17,578 nucleotides of DNA, from the UHGV virus genome UHGV-0086244, one strand, 5' to 3'. Below, piece after piece: positions 3,735-11,831 of this stretch. The first letter of the stretch is position 1, and each line of letters opens with the position of its first letter. The stretch comes from a virus. A program made the position numbers and the translations under genes. A model generated the notes under the pieces. The model ran no database searches and was not told the origin of the DNA. It saw nothing but the letters and a program-made list of their open reading frames with translations.

Positions 3735-3767
3735 TCACCACCAACGACGCCAATCGACTGGTGGTGA
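3735..3767. promoter_or_regulatory. Inverted repeat (caccacca-N15-tggtggtg) just upstream of the Bro-N gene RBS; possible operator or 5'-UTR structure
   Basis: Read directly from the sequence: tcaccaccaacgacgccaatcgactggtggtga. Confidence 0.3.
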
Positions 3768-3865
3768 ACTGTGTAAGGTTGGCGTAACCGGCTACTCAAA
3801 CCCGGCGCTTCCGAAGAAGCCCTCACACAGCCCACCATAATTTGGGCATAGCCGTGCTTAGCGCA

Positions 3866-3888
3866 CAAAAAAACCGCTTAACGCGGTA
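3866..3888 (-). terminator. Candidate intrinsic terminator on the minus strand (5-bp GC-rich stem ACCGC/GCGGU, loop GUUAA, then U7)
   Basis: Minus-strand RNA would read accgcguuaagcgguuuuuuug; lies about 85 nt downstream of the small hydrophobic ORF 3974..4063. Confidence 0.4.
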
Positions 3889-3973
3889 TGCGTTGAGTAG
3901 TATCCCGGGACGCCAATCCCGTGTGCCGATTTTGCGGCAACGCACAGAATATAGCGCCGGATAAATCATGTCG

Positions 3974-6133: not shown

Positions 6134-6856
6134 TTATTTCGAAATCTTTTTATATAATGCTTTTCCCCCTTTCAGCCCAAACTTAGCTTTGATTTCTGCG
6201 ATCTTCGCCAGAGCCTGTGCACGATTTAGAGGTCTACCGCCCATGACAGGAAGTTGTTTTACTGGTTCAGGTATAGCCTCACCACGGTTAATTCGTGCGG
6301 TCATACAGGACAGTTCATCGGCAGCCTTGCGCCGTAATTCCGCGTCAGTCAACGCATTGGCCCGCATGTTCTGATACAGGTTGGTAACCAGCCAGTAGTG
6401 CGCGTTTGATTTCCACGGATAAGACTCTGCATCCGGATACAGCCCACGCTTCCGGCAATACTCGTAAACCATATCAACCAGCTCGCTGGCGTTTGGCAGC
6501 CCGGCGGTAACGGATGCTTCTTCCCGGCACCAGGCAACAAACTGCCCGGGTGATGGCAGGAATGGTCGATTCTGCCGACGGGCTACGCGCATTCCTGCGT
6601 TAACCTGTTCCATTGTGGTGATCCCGTTTTCCCGGAAAGCCAGAACCCACTGGCGGCGGATTTCGTTCAGTTCATTCTGGTCACGGTTAGCCAGGCTCGC
6701 CGGGAAAGTTGCCAGTAACTGCCTGAACACACCGTTGATGATCTGCGCTACCTGCTGTACCTGTGGCTTTTCGTCGTACTGTTCCGGCATGTTGTTGGCG
6801 ATCCGGCGCATCTGCTCACAGTCAAAGTTAACCATTTGTGCGGCGATGTTTTTCAT
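6134..6856 (-). CDS. P: Replication protein P (DnaB helicase loader), lambda-type with a divergent C-terminal tail
   Basis: Protein MKNIAAQMVNFDCEQMRRIANNMPEQYDEKPQVQQVAQIINGVF... matches lambda P from memory until about the last 10 residues; start overlaps the O stop (ATGA). Confidence 0.95.
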   Translation of the reverse strand: MKNIAAQMVNFDCEQMRRIANNMPEQYDEKPQVQQVAQIINGVFRQLLATFPASLANRDQNELNEIRRQWVLAFRENGITTMEQVNAGMRVARRQNRPFLPSPGQFVAWCREEASVTAGLPNASELVDMVYEYCRKRGLYPDAESYPWKSNAHYWLVTNLYQNMRANALTDAELRRKAADELSCMTARINRGEAIPEPVKQLPVMGGRPLNRAQALAKIAEIKAKFGLKGGKALYKKISK

Positions 6857-7782
6857 AAATCCACCCCATAAATCCAGTCAGTGTTTGTCAGGTCCAGTTT
6901 TGATTTTCCGGCTGTCACTCCTGCCTGTTGCTTGTTACGGTTGATTTCGAGCTGGGTCCACTTGTCGCGGAGTTTGGCCGGACTTAGCACGTTACCGGAC
7001 CAGAAGTTGTCCTGGCATGCCCAGCGGAACAGCACGCACATGTCGCGGTGGTTACGTCCGTCACGTTCACGCATCAGGCGGATATCGTTAGCCCACCCTG
7101 CAAAATTCGGTTTTCTGGCTGATGGCGCGATGGTCTTCACCATGTCAAACATCCACTCTGCGGCGGTCAGGTCTTCTGCTGTCCCCCACTTGCTGCCGCT
7201 CTGAATTGCAGCATCCGGTTTCACCACAGGAAGATCGTTTTCTGGTTGGTCAGAGGATTCGCCAGAATTCTCGGACGAAAAAGGTTTTATATTGTCTTTT
7301 GTTAGTTTGTCTTTTGTGTTTACCTGATTCGGGTAAACGCCTTTACCTGATTTGGGTAAACTTTTTTTACCTGATTCAGGTAAATTTACCTCTTTCAGGT
7401 AAACTTTATTTTTCTTACCTGATTCGGGTAATGTTGACCATTCACTGACCACATTATTAATGCCGGTATTCCGCCCGCTCTGAATAAAAATCCCACGCTT
7501 TACCAGAACACTTTTTGCAGCAGAACACTTGTGCGGCAATATCCCGGTTAATTCGGAAAGTTGCTCGTTGCTAACCCAATCCAGTTTTTTATTAAAGCCA
7601 TATGTTTTGCGCATGACAGCCAGAAAGACCAGAAGCTGGTGCTGTGTTAATCCGGCCAGCATCACAGCTTCCAGCAACTCATTTGCAATGCGCGTATAAC
7701 CATCATCGAGATCTGCCACGCGCGGCTCCTTTTGTGCCGCATCCGGCACTGGAAAATTGAATATCTCAGCAGTGTTTGCCAT
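6853..7782 (-). CDS. O: Replication initiator O (chimeric: non-lambda N-terminal iteron-binding domain, lambda-like C-terminal domain); start placed at internal ATG 7782
   Basis: C-terminal half (HSGESSDQPENDLPVVKPDAAIQSGSKWGTAEDLTAAEWMFDMVKTIAPSARKPNF...) matches lambda O from memory; GGAGG RBS before the ATG at 7782; N-terminal MANTAEIFNF parallels lambda O MTNTAKILNF; the origin iterons lie inside the gene. Confidence 0.9.
   Translation of the reverse strand: MANTAEIFNFPVPDAAQKEPRVADLDDGYTRIANELLEAVMLAGLTQHQLLVFLAVMRKTYGFNKKLDWVSNEQLSELTGILPHKCSAAKSVLVKRGIFIQSGRNTGINNVVSEWSTLPESGKKNKVYLKEVNLPESGKKSLPKSGKGVYPNQVNTKDKLTKDNIKPFSSENSGESSDQPENDLPVVKPDAAIQSGSKWGTAEDLTAAEWMFDMVKTIAPSARKPNFAGWANDIRLMRERDGRNHRDMCVLFRWACQDNFWSGNVLSPAKLRDKWTQLEINRNKQQAGVTAGKSKLDLTNTDWIYGVDL
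7318..7434. repeat. Replication origin: five 17-bp iterons (TACCTGATTCGGGTAAA-type, each with inverted ends TTTACC/GGTAAA) with an adjacent AT-rich tract at about 7285..7320
   Basis: Direct repeats at about 7321, 7344, 7368, 7387 and 7416; located inside O as in lambda ori; AT-rich segment on the side expected from the lambda arrangement. Confidence 0.8.
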
Positions 7783-7868
7783 AATTCCTCCCGCAATGAG
7801 TGTGTTACGATTTGCACCTGAAAGTCGGTTCTGTTCCAGCAGACCGGCTTTCGCCATTTCTGAACCTG

Positions 7869-8414
7869 TCATATCGCCCCCAGCATGGTAGTAACCATCG
7901 CCATCAATGGACCAGCCAGATCTGGGTCCACACGAAACATCGACACAATACCTTCACTAATTTCCTTCAGTTTCTGGTGGCGTGGTGCGTTGAGAATGAC
8001 AGCCTGTTTTGCCTCACTGAGTTCCTTTTCCATTTCAGCCAACCTAGCCATGAAGCTATCCTGCTCAACCAGGTAACCGCGATATTCCAGCGGTAGTACC
8101 GCCAGAATTGCCGGGGTCAGTTCACGCACGTTATTTCGGTATTTTTCAGAATCGAATTTGTTATCGAGGAAGCGGAACAGCTTCTGGCGTGCACGGCTGA
8201 CATCATCAGGGAAATCGATGGTGCCGCCGCCCTGCTCCCGATACTCATTCACAATGAGTGTGGCAACGACATCCTGATTATCTTCAGCCGACCAGGCGCG
8301 GACGGCATCACGAATTTTTTCGTGGCCTGGCACCTGTTTTATTTGAGAACGATTTATCACCGCAGTCGGGCTAAATCCGCTAGTCTGTTGGTATGTAAGT
8401 GGTTGCATAATCAT
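7869..8414 (-). CDS. Hypothetical regulatory protein in the cII position (181 aa), possibly a CII-like / CP76-type or YdaT-like regulator
   Basis: Position between cro-like and O, same strand; much longer than lambda CII; family assignment is from memory of gene-order patterns only. Confidence 0.45.
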   Translation of the reverse strand: MIMQPLTYQQTSGFSPTAVINRSQIKQVPGHEKIRDAVRAWSAEDNQDVVATLIVNEYREQGGGTIDFPDDVSRARQKLFRFLDNKFDSEKYRNNVRELTPAILAVLPLEYRGYLVEQDSFMARLAEMEKELSEAKQAVILNAPRHQKLKEISEGIVSMFRVDPDLAGPLMAMVTTMLGAI

Positions 8415-8438
8415 CGCCTTATCAGTTAACGCCGCAGA

Positions 8439-8666
8439 TTAGGCGGCAGAATTACTCGCGTTAAACAATGGTGCGAGGTCGGGACGAATATCTGCTGGCT
8501 TAATCTTTCCACCAGTGGCTGAGACAATTTTCATTACATAGCGGGCATCAATTCCGCCACCGTGTAGCCAACGCCAAACAGTGGGCTGGGCTACACCGCA
8601 TAGATCTGCCAGTCGTTTTTGACTACCTGTAATACTGATTGCGAGTTGAATGGTTTGATTTGTCAT
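8439..8666 (-). CDS. Cro-like small HTH regulator (75 aa from the ATG at 8666)
   Basis: Small ORF divergent from the repressor gene; HTH-like segment GSQKRLADLCGVAQPTVWRW; AGGA 9 nt upstream of the ATG; immediately downstream of the pR-like promoter. Confidence 0.65.
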   Translation of the reverse strand: MTNQTIQLAISITGSQKRLADLCGVAQPTVWRWLHGGGIDARYVMKIVSATGGKIKPADIRPDLAPLFNASNSAA

Positions 8667-8697
8667 TATCAATTCCTATTGGTATTACAATGAATGG

Positions 8698-8726
8698 ATA
8701 ATAGCAATGCGTATTAACCATGGCAA
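8698..8726 (-). promoter_or_regulatory. pR-like sigma70 promoter for the cro-like gene (-35 TTGCCA, 17-bp spacer, -10 TATTAT on the minus strand)
   Basis: Hexamers read from the reverse complement; both overlap the two operator-like 16-bp sites. Confidence 0.5.
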
Positions 8727-8740
8727 TAGCAAAACGTGTT
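8700..8740. promoter_or_regulatory. OR-like operator pair: two 16-bp sites AATAGCAATGCGTATT (8700..8715) and AATAGCAAAACGTGTT (8725..8740), 25 bp centre to centre
   Basis: Same AATAGCAA-N4-T(A/G)TT motif recurs twice at the pL-like region with identical spacing. Confidence 0.55.
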
Positions 8741-8767
8741 TTGACCATCAATACGCAAGCGTATAAA
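8741..8767 (+). promoter_or_regulatory. Candidate pRM-like promoter for the repressor (-35 TTGACC, 15-bp spacer, -10 TATAAA), overlapping the 14-bp palindrome ATACGCAAGCGTAT
   Basis: Hexamers seen in sequence; the short spacer is suboptimal; would give a near-leaderless cI mRNA starting close to the ATG at 8777. Confidence 0.3.
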
Positions 8768-8776
8768 TTAAAACTT

Positions 8777-9469
8777 ATGAAAAAAGAAACTCTTGCTGAT
8801 CGCTTAAACCTAGCGATGGAACAATCTGGGATGTCTCAAGGCGCTCTTGCAAAGGCGTCTGGCGTAGCTCAACCCACAATCTGGAGACTGACAAGCGGCA
8901 ACGCGCGCGGCTCAACAAAAATTGTTGAAATAGCTAATGCATTGGGTGTTCGAACAGAGTGGCTCTCATCAGGCATAGGCCCGATGAGAAATGACGGTCA
9001 ACAATCAGGGAAGCCTACTGTCAACCATTCCAAATACTTCAAGATTGACGTTCTTGATATAGAAGTGAGTGCCGGGCCGGGAGTCATCAACCGTGAGTTT
9101 GTAGAAGTCCTACGCTCGGTTGAGTACTCGTTTGACGATGCTCGTCACATGTTCGATGGCAGGAAGGCGGAAAATATCCGCATCATTAACGTACGTGGTG
9201 ACAGCATGTCAGGAACAATCGAACCAGGTGATCTGCTGTTCGTTGATATCACGGTTAAATCTTTCGACGGTGATGGCATCTATGCGTTTCTGTACGACGA
9301 CACAGCCCATGTAAAGCGCCTGCAAATGATGAAGGATAAGCTGTTGGTTATCTCTGATAACAAGAGCTACTCACCGTGGGACCCGATCGAGAAAGACGAG
9401 ATGAACCGGGTGTTCATTTTTGGGAAAGTCATCGGGAGCATGCCGCAGACCTACAGGAAGCATGGGTAG
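8777..9469 (+). CDS. cI: CI-type prophage repressor: N-terminal XRE-family HTH and C-terminal S24 (LexA-like) autopeptidase domain; not lambda cI
   Basis: HTH segment LADRLNLAMEQSGMSQGALAKASGVAQPTIWRL; C-terminal VRGDSMSGTIEPGDLLFVD ... K motif typical of S24 peptidases; the longest ORF starts at 8720 but would overlap the pR-like promoter, so the ATG at 8777 is preferred. Confidence 0.85.
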   Translation: MKKETLADRLNLAMEQSGMSQGALAKASGVAQPTIWRLTSGNARGSTKIVEIANALGVRTEWLSSGIGPMRNDGQQSGKPTVNHSKYFKIDVLDIEVSAGPGVINREFVEVLRSVEYSFDDARHMFDGRKAENIRIINVRGDSMSGTIEPGDLLFVDITVKSFDGDGIYAFLYDDTAHVKRLQMMKDKLLVISDNKSYSPWDPIEKDEMNRVFIFGKVIGSMPQTYRKHG

Positions 9470-9509
9470 GTAGTATGTAAAGAATTACCTTTGGTTGATT
9501 TGTAATAGC

Positions 9510-9539
9510 TACCGATTACGTTATCGGTAGCTATAAGAA
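9510..9539. promoter_or_regulatory. Perfect 12-bp-arm inverted repeat (ATAGCTACCGAT-N6-ATCGGTAGCTAT) between cI and the rex-slot module; terminator-like hairpin or protein-binding palindrome
   Basis: Read directly; followed on the plus strand by a short U-rich stretch (aagaaattttta). Confidence 0.35.
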
Positions 9540-9592
9540 ATTTTTATGTCTTTAACTGTGTTTATTTATTCAATACTAGTTGGACTATAGCA

Positions 9593-10615
9593 ATGAAAGA
9601 TAACAGACAAAAAGTCGTTCATTATAAAAAAGCAGTAATCCCACACAGCAAATCATCATTACAAAACATACTACTTAGTATTATAGGTGAGGGCGGCGTT
9701 GCAGAAAAAGTACTTAGTAGACAAGAAAAAATAACACCTTCAGATGAAAATTCGGGGTATCGTTTCTTAAATAAAAGCGACACATACAAAACTATACTTT
9801 TTGGGCAACTGGTTTTATTTGAAAAAGACAAAAGCCAGTCTCTATTAGAGCTTAGTGATAATGTTAAATTTTATGACATTAACTCCATCACGTCTAATGA
9901 TATAATTATTGATGGAGATAAACGTAGTGACAAAAAAAGAGAGTTTGTAGATTCAATTTTATATTTTGGTGTACTAAACAACCATGTCATGATCGTTCAA
10001 TCCACATCGCTTCGAGCAAGGGAGCTTGAGGCGCATTTGAATTGGCTAATTAATACATTCACAGATGAAAAAGAATCTGTGTTAATGCTTCAAGATAAGC
10101 CATCCGAAGAAACGATGAAAAAAATGGAGAAAGCACCAGCCAAGAGCATAAAAATTGGTGGATTACCCATTACTTCAGAAGTTAAAAATTCAGAGAACCA
10201 AACACCCTCCTTTTCAAATGGTTCGGTGAAGACAATAAAATACCGCCCAATAGGGAAAGGAGGTGCGCTACTAAAAGCATTTTTTGGCGATAACTGGGCA
10301 AATGATATAAACATTAAAGATTCATTAGATGAGGCCAATTTACAAGTAAGCCTCGAGATTACATACTTCAGAAAAACAAATGATAGCGGTCAAGCTGTTA
10401 TAGACAGTATTGCTACCTCACTACGACATCTAGATGAGGATGATATTAGCATCAAACTTCAAGGCGGTGGGGAAATAACGGGAAAAGAGATAAAATTATC
10501 CGGAAAAATTAGCGTTGAACATAACAATGGCATTATTGATGAAAATGATTTATTCTTAAAAATGCATAAGTGGCTGTTCTCAAAACTTGATGCCGGAGAA
10601 TTGGTTGCAAAATAA
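9593..10615 (+). CDS. Hypothetical soluble protein (340 aa) occupying the rexA position; candidate sensor of a RexAB-like exclusion module
   Basis: Long ORF immediately downstream of cI on the same strand, in an AT-rich block; no recognisable similarity to lambda RexA from memory. Confidence 0.6.
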   Translation: MKDNRQKVVHYKKAVIPHSKSSLQNILLSIIGEGGVAEKVLSRQEKITPSDENSGYRFLNKSDTYKTILFGQLVLFEKDKSQSLLELSDNVKFYDINSITSNDIIIDGDKRSDKKREFVDSILYFGVLNNHVMIVQSTSLRARELEAHLNWLINTFTDEKESVLMLQDKPSEETMKKMEKAPAKSIKIGGLPITSEVKNSENQTPSFSNGSVKTIKYRPIGKGGALLKAFFGDNWANDINIKDSLDEANLQVSLEITYFRKTNDSGQAVIDSIATSLRHLDEDDISIKLQGGGEITGKEIKLSGKISVEHNNGIIDENDLFLKMHKWLFSKLDAGELVAK

Positions 10616-10636
10616 CCTACCAAAAGGAGGGCGATA

Positions 10637-11143
10637 ATGAAATCGAACATCATCCACCTTATTGGTATGTTGGTCTTCTATTTTGCTGGTTACTTTTTGT
10701 TCAAGTCAGCATTGGGCTATATTACACCGGGTGTTGTCCTAACAGCTCCGTGGGCTGTGGTTGGACTCATGCAATTGCCATTATCATATTGTATACAAGC
10801 CATTTTTAAGGCAAATGAGGCCAATGACCACTCGTCTTTAACCCCTAGTGAGGTTAGGCGATTAGTGCCAATAGTCAAATCCAAGAGACTGAAATTGGTT
10901 TTATTATTAGCTTTCTATGTATTTTCAACTTTGTTTGTAATCTTGGGGTTAATAGCAAGCACAAATGATCAAGCCCTACTCTTCAGGGTCTTAAAAATTT
11001 CAGGTGGATTACTCTTTATTTCTCTCTATACCAGTGTATTCGTTCATAAAATAATGGTTGAGCTTCAAGAGTTTAAAGCGTTATTAAACCGAAGAGAATC
11101 AGAGAAGAAGGAAAGAGAGTCACTCCTTGATAGATTAAAATGA
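10637..11143 (+). CDS. Hypothetical 4-TM membrane protein (168 aa) occupying the rexB position; candidate membrane effector
   Basis: AGGAGG RBS 7 nt upstream; four hydrophobic segments (IIHLIGMLVFYFAGYFLF, VVLTAPWAVVGLMQLPL, LVLLLAFYVFSTLFVILGLIA, LLFISLYTSVFV); charged C-terminal tail; followed by a strong terminator. Confidence 0.65.
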   Translation: MKSNIIHLIGMLVFYFAGYFLFKSALGYITPGVVLTAPWAVVGLMQLPLSYCIQAIFKANEANDHSSLTPSEVRRLVPIVKSKRLKLVLLLAFYVFSTLFVILGLIASTNDQALLFRVLKISGGLLFISLYTSVFVHKIMVELQEFKALLNRRESEKKERESLLDRLK

Positions 11144-11153
11144 CCCCCCCCTC

Positions 11154-11180
11154 CCCGGCCGTCGTGCCGGGTTTTCTTTT
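11154..11180 (+). terminator. Intrinsic terminator after the rex-slot module (stem CCCGGC/GCCGGG, loop CGTCGT, then TTTTCTTTT)
   Basis: GC-rich hairpin followed by a T-tract on the plus strand, directly after the stop of the 168-aa gene. Confidence 0.75.
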
Positions 11181-11305
11181 GCCTCCCCTCATCACACACC
11201 GTTCAAAAAACCACCATAACCCCCGCTTCAGTTATCGCTATGCGATGCAAGTCACAAAATTAATTCCTTTTGCTATCAAACAGTTAATATCAAAATACAT
11301 CAATC

Positions 11306-11346
11306 AATAGCAATAAGTATTGATATCACCAATAGCAATAGCTATT
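11306..11346. promoter_or_regulatory. OL-like operator pair: AATAGCAATAAGTATT (11306..11321) and AATAGCAATAGCTATT (11331..11346), 25 bp centre to centre
   Basis: Same 16-bp motif and spacing as the OR-like sites at 8700..8740. Confidence 0.55.
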
Positions 11347-11348
11347 AT
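11320..11348 (+). promoter_or_regulatory. pL-like sigma70 promoter (-35 TTGATA, 17-bp spacer, -10 TATTAT) overlapping both OL-like sites
   Basis: Hexamers and spacing read directly; oriented towards gam-bet-exo-xis-int as lambda pL. Confidence 0.55.
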
Positions 11349-11624
11349 CACCATGTCGCAACAACACAACGATACGGCAACCACCTGATTCGCCGTTGCG
11401 ATGACCGCTTAGATCCGCAGCTTGAATTTCAGCAGGCTCCGGGGAGTGCGAGGGGTGAAGCGGACGCGTGAACGTCGGTGTGACCAGCTGAAATCAACTC
11501 AACACTTCATACCTCAGTCGCTTCAACGAGGCGGCTTAGTTATGACAACCGGCGGCCTCCACCGCCTGAATACGCGCAGAAGTCTCTATATGTTCAGCAG
11601 CCCAGCTTACGGGCAGGAGTTTTT

Positions 11625-11831
11625 ATGGTTCATCAACATTACGGAACTCAGACCGTTAATCGCGGTGCCGTCCGGCCAGGTATGCTGGTTAAACACAAAG
11701 ATGGTACCTGGACGGCATCAGCTAATTTGCGCGGTCGGCTTTACTTGCATCGCGGCATCGAACGAACGTACACAAAAGATTTGCTCGTGGAGGTTTACCT
11801 GAATGTTACTGGCGGTGGTCTGAGCCACTAA
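11625..11831 (+). CDS. Hypothetical protein (68 aa), first ORF downstream of the pL-like promoter; not recognisably N-like
   Basis: ATG preceded by AGGAG 7 nt upstream (gggcaggagtttttATG); no Arg-rich N-terminal motif. Confidence 0.4.
   Translation: MVHQHYGTQTVNRGAVRPGMLVKHKDGTWTASANLRGRLYLHRGIERTYTKDLLVEVYLNVTGGGLSH

Follow-up and report, generated by a model that had tools for sequence, protein, structure and literature searches.

What sets the immunity of the phage represented by UHGV virus genome UHGV-0086244, and how closely does its lysogeny switch follow that of lambda? The window analyzed here is a stretch of 17,578 nucleotides, and the question concerns positions 8,667 to 11,624, which run from the start of a cro-like gene through cI to the edge of a second early operon. 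A sequence-only reading had proposed that two pairs of a shared operator motif control this region and had called the architecture resolved. We conclude that the interval is very likely the immunity module of a lambda-like temperate phage, with three operators in the right operator region (OR), OL1 and OL2 together with decayed and distal elements in the left operator region (OL), and a CI/Cro switch. Judged by comparison with relatives, the earlier interpretation is supported apart from the status of one palindrome, the complexity of OL and the word resolved, which is too strong for what sequence alone can show. It also did not notice that the sites are palindromic, that OL has two more elements, and that the cro and cII genes are of the YdaS/YdaT type.

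Proposed operators at OR and OL

The cro-like gene and cI are divergently oriented around a short control region, as in lambdoid switches. The genes, operators, and promoters on which the argument rests are as follows.

8439-8666, minus strand: cro-like gene of 75 amino acids with a YdaS-family helix-turn-helix (HTH), first in the pR operon (Pfam YdaS_toxin, E=9.6e-15; phrog_35, transcriptional repressor)
111 bp, ATG to ATG: cro-cI control region
8777-9469, plus strand: cI repressor gene, 230 amino acids, HTH and S24 peptidase
8700-8715: OR1, AATAGCAATGCGTATT, half-sites AATAGC and AATACG, over the pR -10
8725-8740: OR2, AATAGCAAAACGTGTT, half-sites AATAGC and AACACG, over the pR -35 and abutting the pRM -35
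8750-8765: OR3, AATACGCAAGCGTATA, half-sites AATACG and TATACG, over the pRM spacer and -10
8698-8726, minus strand: pR-like promoter, -35 TTGCCA (8726-8721), 17-bp spacer, TG-extended -10 TATTAT (8703-8698), 10/12 matches in the scan, predicted start near 8691
8741-8769, plus strand: pRM-like cI promoter from the promoter scan, -35 TTGACC (8741-8746), 17-bp spacer, -10 TAAATT (8764-8769), predicted start at 8776/8777
11306-11321: OL2, AATAGCAATAAGTATT, half-sites AATAGC and AATACT, over the pL -35
11331-11346: OL1, AATAGCAATAGCTATT, a perfect 6-4-6 palindrome over the pL spacer and -10, also matched on the minus strand with one mismatch
11320-11348, plus strand: pL-like promoter, TTGATA-17-TATTAT, 10/12 matches in the scan, predicted start near 11355

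The four sites of the form AATAGCAA-N4-TRTT reported by the sequence-only reading are all present on the plus strand (8700-8715, 8725-8740, 11306-11321, and 11331-11346). The pattern AATAGCAANNNNTRTT matches four times, against a mean of 0.01 in shuffled sequence, and none of 200 shuffles reached four. An unsupervised repeat search of 8600-11400 returned the same four copies as its top direct-repeat family, with spacings of 25, 2581, and 25. One pair lies between the cro-like gene and cI and the other upstream of kil-gam-bet-exo, and the 25-bp step within each pair (8700/8725 and 11306/11331) is as described before. The promoter scan returned the same hexamers for the near-consensus pR and pL that the pairs were said to overlap. 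The overlap amounts to 4 bp with the -10 hexamers for OR1 and OL1 and to 2 bp with the -35 hexamers for OR2 and OL2. A pR reading with TAATAC at 8687-8682, noticed by eye, was rejected for its spacers of 14-15 bp, which are too short.

The description of the sites as a one-sided motif had to be given up, since they are dyad-symmetric. The operator is a 16-bp pseudo-palindrome, AATAGC-N4-GCTATT, with the half-site AATA[G/C][C/G/T]. The copy at 11331-11346 is perfect (AATAGC-AATA-GCTATT), and each of the other three joins one AATAGC half to a variant half, AATACG, AACACG, or AATACT.

The same geometry takes in the 14-bp palindrome ATACGCAAGCGTAT at 8751-8764, which overlaps the pRM -10. It had been described as distinct and possibly OR3-like. 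The second part of that description fits and the first does not: the palindrome belongs to the same operator family with the variant half-site AATACG, which is also the right half of OR1. It lies inside the 16-bp OR3 frame, both are centered on 8757.5, and the frame starts exactly 25 bp from OR2. Because the palindrome is concentric with a frame 25 bp beyond OR2 and shares this half-site, OR is a three-operator array with a strict 25-bp period. Three related dyad-symmetric operators thus overlap pR and pRM, and copies of the same operator lie at a distant OL over pL, both as expected of a lambdoid switch.

Conservation and the link to the CI recognition helix

We used the N-terminal 78 residues of CI as a query and collected 30 loci from one-genome-per-species contigs. 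These cover 20+ genera, including Kluyvera, Citrobacter, Enterobacter, Raoultella, Pluralibacter, Buttiauxella, Proteus, Providencia, Morganella, Serratia, and Xenorhabdus, at 95% to 56% identity, and phage loci from E. coli, Klebsiella, and Salmonella were added. Comparison with related prophage immunity regions had been suggested as a check, and across 35 loci the sites, their frame, and their spacing are conserved. The OR1-OR2 distance is 25 bp in 35/35 motif-bearing loci from Escherichia to Morganella, including the Salmonella phage BTP1. OR2 and OR3 are 25 bp apart in the E. coli- and Klebsiella-like genera and 24 bp apart in the Proteus, Providencia, Morganella, and Serratia loci. OR3 begins 27 nt before the cI ATG in the relatives (26 in one locus), and OL clusters are found in all of them.

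The OR sites also stand out column by column. In a MAFFT alignment of 32 distinct OR sequences, used because ungapped columns under-score OR1 and OR2 through 1-bp indels, information per column is 1.88 bits for OR1, 1.53 for OR2, and 1.71 for OR3. By comparison, the values are 0.8-0.9 bits in the spacers and 1.2-1.5 in the cro and cI codons on either side, and OR1 is the most conserved block. As the most conserved non-coding columns among the relatives, the OR sites are supported as sequences that behave as operators.

The proteins point in the same direction. CI matches Pfam Peptidase_S24 (1.3e-18) and HTH_3 (1.8e-6), and its HTH domain is 434-like, with the recognition helix GVAQPTIWRL at residues 29-38. 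Ala99-Gly100, Ser143, and Lys180 align in register with lambda CI, which predicts a self-cleaving S24 domain of the lambdoid kind; overall, the two repressors share 24% identity (E=0.025). The HTH of Cro aligns with that of CI, and its helix GVAQPTVWRW matches GVAQPTIWRL. Among the relatives, GVAQPTIWRL in CI and GV(A/S)QPTVWRW in Cro are invariant wherever the motif occurs. Because the recognition helices are nearly identical, the YdaS-family Cro would be expected to read the same sites as CI.

A natural exchange ties the motif to the repressor. Through O and ydaT, PhiR5_1 matches the window at 98.8% identity, and in the C-terminal part of cI at about 89%. It is wholly different in two stretches: 8412-8912, which holds cro, OR, and CI residues 1-45, and about 11264-11354, which is the OL block. 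Its exchanged blocks carry the helices GVSQAAIQKI and EVSQQAVYKW and a repeat of the AACAAC/GTTGTT type. By this comparison, PhiR5_1 and the window phage form a classical heteroimmune mosaic. Since PhiR5_1 exchanges the motif together with the recognition helices, the motif is tied to the CI DNA-binding domain.

The proposal that the immunity specificity differs from that of lambda agrees with this swap and with the lambda record, in which positions 35300-38400 contain no match to the matrix built from the four sites; the 17-bp operators and CI domain of imm-lambda are not those of the window. The closest solved structure for the CI DNA-binding domain is the 434 repressor (E 2.5e-6 to 1e-5, 60 residues aligned). 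The domains are homologous, whereas both the helix (TQQSIEQL in 434, AQPTIWRL in the window) and the operator (14-bp ACAA-N6-TTGT against 16-bp AATAGC-N4-GCTATT) differ, and cross-specificity with 434 would not be expected. The operators of 434 keep their outer 4 bp strictly and differ from site to site at the inner positions. The window operators follow a similar logic, with conserved outer AATA...TATT and variable inner positions.

Several points weigh against taking these comparisons too far. At a threshold of 14 bits, the four-site matrix scored 165 hits within the 7.1 kb of OR and OL zones of 31 relatives and 10 in their other 221 kb, but the OL zones were themselves located by motif hits, making that part of the count partly circular; the OR zones were not. 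Because the relatives share ancestry, some of the conservation is inherited rather than selected. Covariation of helix and half-site was considered as proof of specificity and set aside as anecdotal, with a single informative lineage. The OL1-OL2 distance can be read as 19 or 25 bp in many relatives, and the 25-bp step is not universal at OL. Finally, the pRM -35 is near-consensus (TTGACC); dependence on activation by CI is therefore not implied by the sequence.

The single informative lineage is a Morganella psychrotolerans locus (L036, 3900-4000). It has three AATAAC-type sites in the same frame; its CI helix carries an R to K change and its Cro helix differs at several positions, and its specificity may be derived. 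A Xenorhabdus locus (L032, 3900-4000) keeps the CI helix; it is probably a decayed prophage, because it has one recognizable site and no cro.

Two other accounts of the sites have to be weighed. The palindrome at 8751-8764 could be a separate site for another protein, such as a Cro-only site or one for a YdaT/CII-like factor, rather than a third CI operator. Both of its halves read ATACG(C) instead of AATAGC, it has a 6-2-6 layout unlike the 6-4-6 of OL1, and it is invariant among Enterobacteriaceae relatives. Yet its center coincides with that of the frame 25 bp from OR2, and AATACG recurs as the right half of OR1, with AATAC[G/T/C] forming one half of most OL sites in the relatives. Proteus, Providencia, and Morganella lack the 14-bp palindrome but keep the outer AATAC...TATA of the 16-bp frame. 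The YdaT of CP-933P recognizes the unrelated TTGATT-N6-AATCAA (PMC9986795). We regard a separate site as improbable and keep OR3 as the third operator.

It might also be argued that the four repeats resemble each other merely as duplicated pR and pL promoter cassettes, the motif carrying the -10 TATTAT, with CI binding some other sequence. The -10 at both promoters is indeed supplied by GCTATTAT, and the similarity between OR and OL extends over 30 nt. However, OR2, OL2, and OR3 are conserved although they contain no -10, and the dyad symmetry of the sites speaks against a promoter cassette. Klebsiella and Enterobacter relatives retain OL sites that are inverted relative to pL. The 111-bp cro-cI gap holds no other repeated or conserved element, and the joint exchange of motif and helices in PhiR5_1 tells against the idea as well. 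We find this account hardly credible, and the operators are best regarded as the sites of CI.

Additional elements around OL and the cro start

A motif search for further copies had been suggested. The exact pattern gives just the four sites, and OR3 and weaker OL-side elements appear as variants. In the relatives, OL follows a frame of four positions with offsets 0, -25 (or -19), -45, and -69. Two elements in the window fall on this frame upstream of OL2, and one comparable element lies on the OR side.

11286-11301: degenerate remnant AATATCAAAATACATC of an OL site at offset -45, below the matrix threshold in the window and intact in relatives, for example AATAGCAATTGCTATT in Enterobacter
11262-11277: OL-distal element AATTCCTTTTGCTATC (minus strand GATAGCAAAAGGAATT) at offset -69, 44 bp from OL2, matrix score 16.1
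8671-8686: possible weak fourth OR-side site AATTCCTATTGGTATT, half-sites AATTCC and AATACC, 29 bp from OR1 and overlapping the cro Shine-Dalgarno sequence, matrix score 15.7

The OL-distal element is kept in Enterobacteriaceae relatives and falls within the immunity-specific block exchanged in PhiR5_1. An integration host factor (IHF) core match, TATCAAACAGTTA at 11274-11286, overlaps it. Two roles are possible for the element, as a weak fourth operator or within an IHF-type site. In the repeat search, the OR-side element at 8671-8686 resembles the OL-distal element, and its 29-bp spacing is found in BTP1 too. Its left half is the Shine-Dalgarno sequence AGGAAT, and the ribosome-binding site alone could account for that half.

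If both extra elements were operators, the module would be a 4+4-site switch instead of the 3+3 of lambda, recalling the four equally spaced repeats of CP-933P. CI or Cro could then form a longer array or a different looped complex, and cro expression could be blocked downstream of the pR start. We consider this arrangement unlikely. A better candidate, which we hold tentatively and somewhat short of even, is that the OL-distal element belongs to an IHF-type host-factor site upstream of pL, as in lambda, and that 8671-8686 is merely the cro ribosome-binding site. Lambda pL is stimulated by IHF. In the window, TATCAAACAGTTA fits the IHF core consensus about 70-80 bp upstream of the predicted pL start with an A/T tract before it, TATCAA-N4-TTA is retained in many relatives, and the CAA.CAGTTA part is conserved even in the heteroimmune PhiR5_1. 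The AGGAAT sequence agrees with the ribosome-binding-site half of this proposal. The IHF core match by itself is not significant, however (4 in the window against 1.5 expected), and it is absent in several relatives that retain GCTATC. GATAGC is a proper operator half-site, and the element not only lies within the immunity-specific block but also sits on a 24/20/25 frame with four good sites in Enterobacter-type relatives.

A separate observation concerns the right part of the OR-side element. At a distance of 13-14 bp from OR1, and at about +5 to +9 in the predicted cro mRNA, the sequence GTAT(T/A) at 8682-8686 hardly varies among 32 relatives, including those in which the Shine-Dalgarno region differs. 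Its role might be that of a half-operator, an element of the start region, or a feature of the RNA.

Proposed regulation, gene order, and related systems

In the proposed mechanism, CI dimers at OR1 plus OR2 and at OL1 plus OL2 would occlude the -10 and -35 elements of pR and pL. The cooperative binding put forward by the sequence-only reading, and looping between OL and OR, would be possible features of such a complex. From the predicted starts, pR would drive cro-ydaT-O-P, and pL would drive kil-gam-bet-exo after a leader of about 270 nt. CI bound at OR2 would sit against the pRM -35, touching RNA polymerase and positioned to stimulate cI. OR3 lies over the pRM -10, where occupancy at high CI would shut off cI (negative autoregulation), and it would be the likely first or preferred target of Cro. 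The probably leaderless cI transcript would continue through two cargo genes to the terminator at 11154-11171. On induction, SOS-activated RecA would promote CI self-cleavage at Ala99-Gly100 (S143, K180). This account is supported by two experimental analogues, BTP1 (PMC7067206) and CP-933P (PMC8630535).

The proposed lack of a cI leader follows from the position of pRM. Its -10 ends 7 nt before the A of the cI ATG with no Shine-Dalgarno sequence, and the cI mRNA is therefore probably leaderless or nearly so. The relatives conserve TTTGAC and TATAAATT and keep a constant distance to the ATG, while the sequence in between varies.

The gene order around the switch reads in reverse of the lambda map. 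Over 8400-11450, the window is 98.4% identical to Escherichia phage Perceval (genus Bievrevirus). The remaining features of the module are as follows.

6134-6856, minus strand: P
6853-7872, minus strand: O
7869-8414, minus strand: YdaT-family 'cII' (Pfam YdaT_toxin, E=9.6e-30)
9593-11143, plus strand: two AT-rich cargo genes
9593-10615, plus strand: cargo gene 1, 340 amino acids, phrog_3482, function unknown
10637-11143, plus strand: cargo gene 2, predicted membrane protein of 168 amino acids, phrog_16807, function unknown
11154-11171, plus strand: intrinsic terminator ending the cI-cargo unit (terminator scan: 6 G-C pairs, then TTTTCTTTT)
from about 11262, plus strand: second control region, then kil-gam-bet-exo
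11625-11831: kil (phrog_294, E=1e-34; Perceval annotation)

From pR, the operon thus runs cro, YdaT-type 'cII', O, and P. A YdaS-type Cro followed by a YdaT-type regulator is the CP-933P-type arrangement by Pfam. Pfam names both families 'toxins', and the YdaS/YdaT type is also that of Rac. The terminator is kept in PhiR5_1 as well.

The cargo genes have a GC content of 33-39% against 45-54% in the flanks. Their products had no Pfam or PADLOC match, and a relationship to RexA/RexB was rejected, as they show no similarity to the lambda proteins. The slot between cI and pL is variable, holding rexAB in lambda, bstA in BTP1, SIR2 in an O157:H7 prophage, and HipA in PhiR5_1. The cargo genes are probably co-transcribed with cI and are a candidate lysogen-expressed exclusion or defense pair. 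Between the cI stop and cargo gene 1, a hairpin with a 12-bp stem (ATAGCTACCGAT...ATCGGTAGCTAT, 9505-9534) is followed by an A/U-rich tail. This region is more stably folded than shuffled sequence (z = -2.9), and the hairpin may be an attenuator, a processing site, or a cargo-insertion scar.

The pL leader (11355-11624) covers about 270 nt before kil. It contains no boxA and no short hairpin of the boxB kind, no recognizable N gene was found after pL, and its folding is not better than that of shuffled sequence (z = -0.57). The N-like, Arg-rich KRTRERR in the open reading frame 11422-11802 was rejected as a gene, because in PhiR5_1 a stop ends that frame at about 20 codons and because it runs over kil in another frame. 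Heteroimmune relatives such as PhiR5_1 conserve the leader (about 87-98%); in other carriers of the same immunity module the pL leaders are quite different, some with boxA and N.

Compared with lambda, the window shares the divergent cI and cro genes, three operators over pR and pRM with OR2 next to the pRM -35 and OR3 over pRM, cargo genes after cI, and a CI of HTH plus S24 type with Ala-Gly, Ser, and Lys in register. The dimensions are also close: the OR periods are 24/23 bp in the annotated lambda record and 25/25 bp in the window, the OL periods are 24/20 bp and a 25/20/24 bp frame, and OL and OR are about 2.4 kb and 2.58 kb apart. The edge of OR3 lies 11 bp from the cI ATG in lambda and 12 bp in the window, which would fit a leaderless message. 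In contrast, the 17-bp operators of lambda with 6-7 bp spacers are replaced by 16-bp operators with 9-bp spacers and unrelated sequence, and the window has a YdaS-type Cro, a YdaT-type 'cII', no recognizable N/nut after pL, and a near-consensus pRM -35.

One of the closest systems is BTP1, a Salmonella P22-like phage, together with ST104, ST160, and SE1Spa. Its CI N-terminal domain is 89.7% identical to that of the window with the same recognition helix. It carries operators at 25-bp steps (OR1 AATAGCAATTAGTATT, OR2 AATAGCAAAACGTGTT, OR3 AATACTCAAGCGTATA), the same kind of OL cluster, and cargo (bstA) downstream of cI. With the same helix, motif, and frame at OR and OL, these phages and the window phage evidently belong to the same immunity group as judged from sequence. 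BTP1 differs as a podovirus in which cro is followed by a lambda-type cII and pL by a P22-type nutL and N, and its pL -10 is TATTGT. Because BTP1-type phages combine the module with lambda-type cII and P22-type N/nutL, it moves as a unit between phage types; and since BTP1 has a lambda-type cII beside the same cI and operators and a similar Cro, the cII function is swapped independently of the module.

BTP1 transcribes cI and bstA as one operon from one start site, with high expression in lysogens (PMC7067206). The expression tables of PMC7067206 and PMC6333337 give no start coordinates for the homologous BTP1 promoters. Transferred by coordinates from locus L039, the predicted starts would correspond in FN424405 to about 379527/379528 for pRM (minus strand, leaderless), about 379613 for pR (plus strand), and about 377427/377428 for pL (minus strand). 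BTP1 is carried by epidemic Salmonella ST313 and is reported to show unusually high spontaneous induction and to have a cI-linked defense gene, bstA; two BTP1 papers (PMC7067206 among them) and the MG40 note contain no operator description. A literature search with five operator 15-16-mers as text strings found no paper.

CP-933P of E. coli O157:H7 offers footprints for the other half of the comparison. The footprints of its YdaS-type Cro and its repressor overlap across PR/PRM, PL is regulated, and the repressor gene is leaderless (PMC8630535). It shares with the window the YdaS-type Cro, a YdaT-type CII analogue, an OL/PL counterpart, and cargo (toxin-antitoxin) after the repressor (PMC8630535). 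It differs in its repressor, PaaR2 rather than an S24 CI, and in its four 18-bp palindromes, which lie at equal intervals and have the consensus GTTTAGTAA, to which the operator motif of the window is unrelated. Its immunity specificity is a different one.

Rfam, run over the whole window, had no match in the immunity region. Elsewhere, two adjoining matches exceed the gathering score: C4 antisense RNA at 3757-3842 (minus strand, 74.8 bits) and the Hfq-binding RNA isrK at 3867-3939 (minus strand, 58.7 bits). Far from the immunity region, they suggest a second, RNA-based regulatory layer in the prophage, such as antirepressor or antiterminator control.

The module is common. The cro-OR-cI segment is found over at least 80% of its length in 719 of 5426 complete E. 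coli genomes (~13%), one carrier being the O157:H7 prophage with SIR2 in the cargo slot. In an O157:H7 prophage locus (L037, Z1836, 9001-9223), the YdaS-type cro beside the same operators is annotated as frameshifted, and for that reason the prophage may be locked in the repressed state. In concept, the switch brings no novelty. It follows the lambda paradigm with another recognition code and is an uncharacterized member of the lambdoid immunity switches. What the analysis adds is a concrete operator map for a common, uncharacterized immunity group. The map predicts which prophages are homo-immune, accounts for expression of the cargo or defense slot downstream of cI in lysogens, and offers another orthogonal repressor/operator pair.

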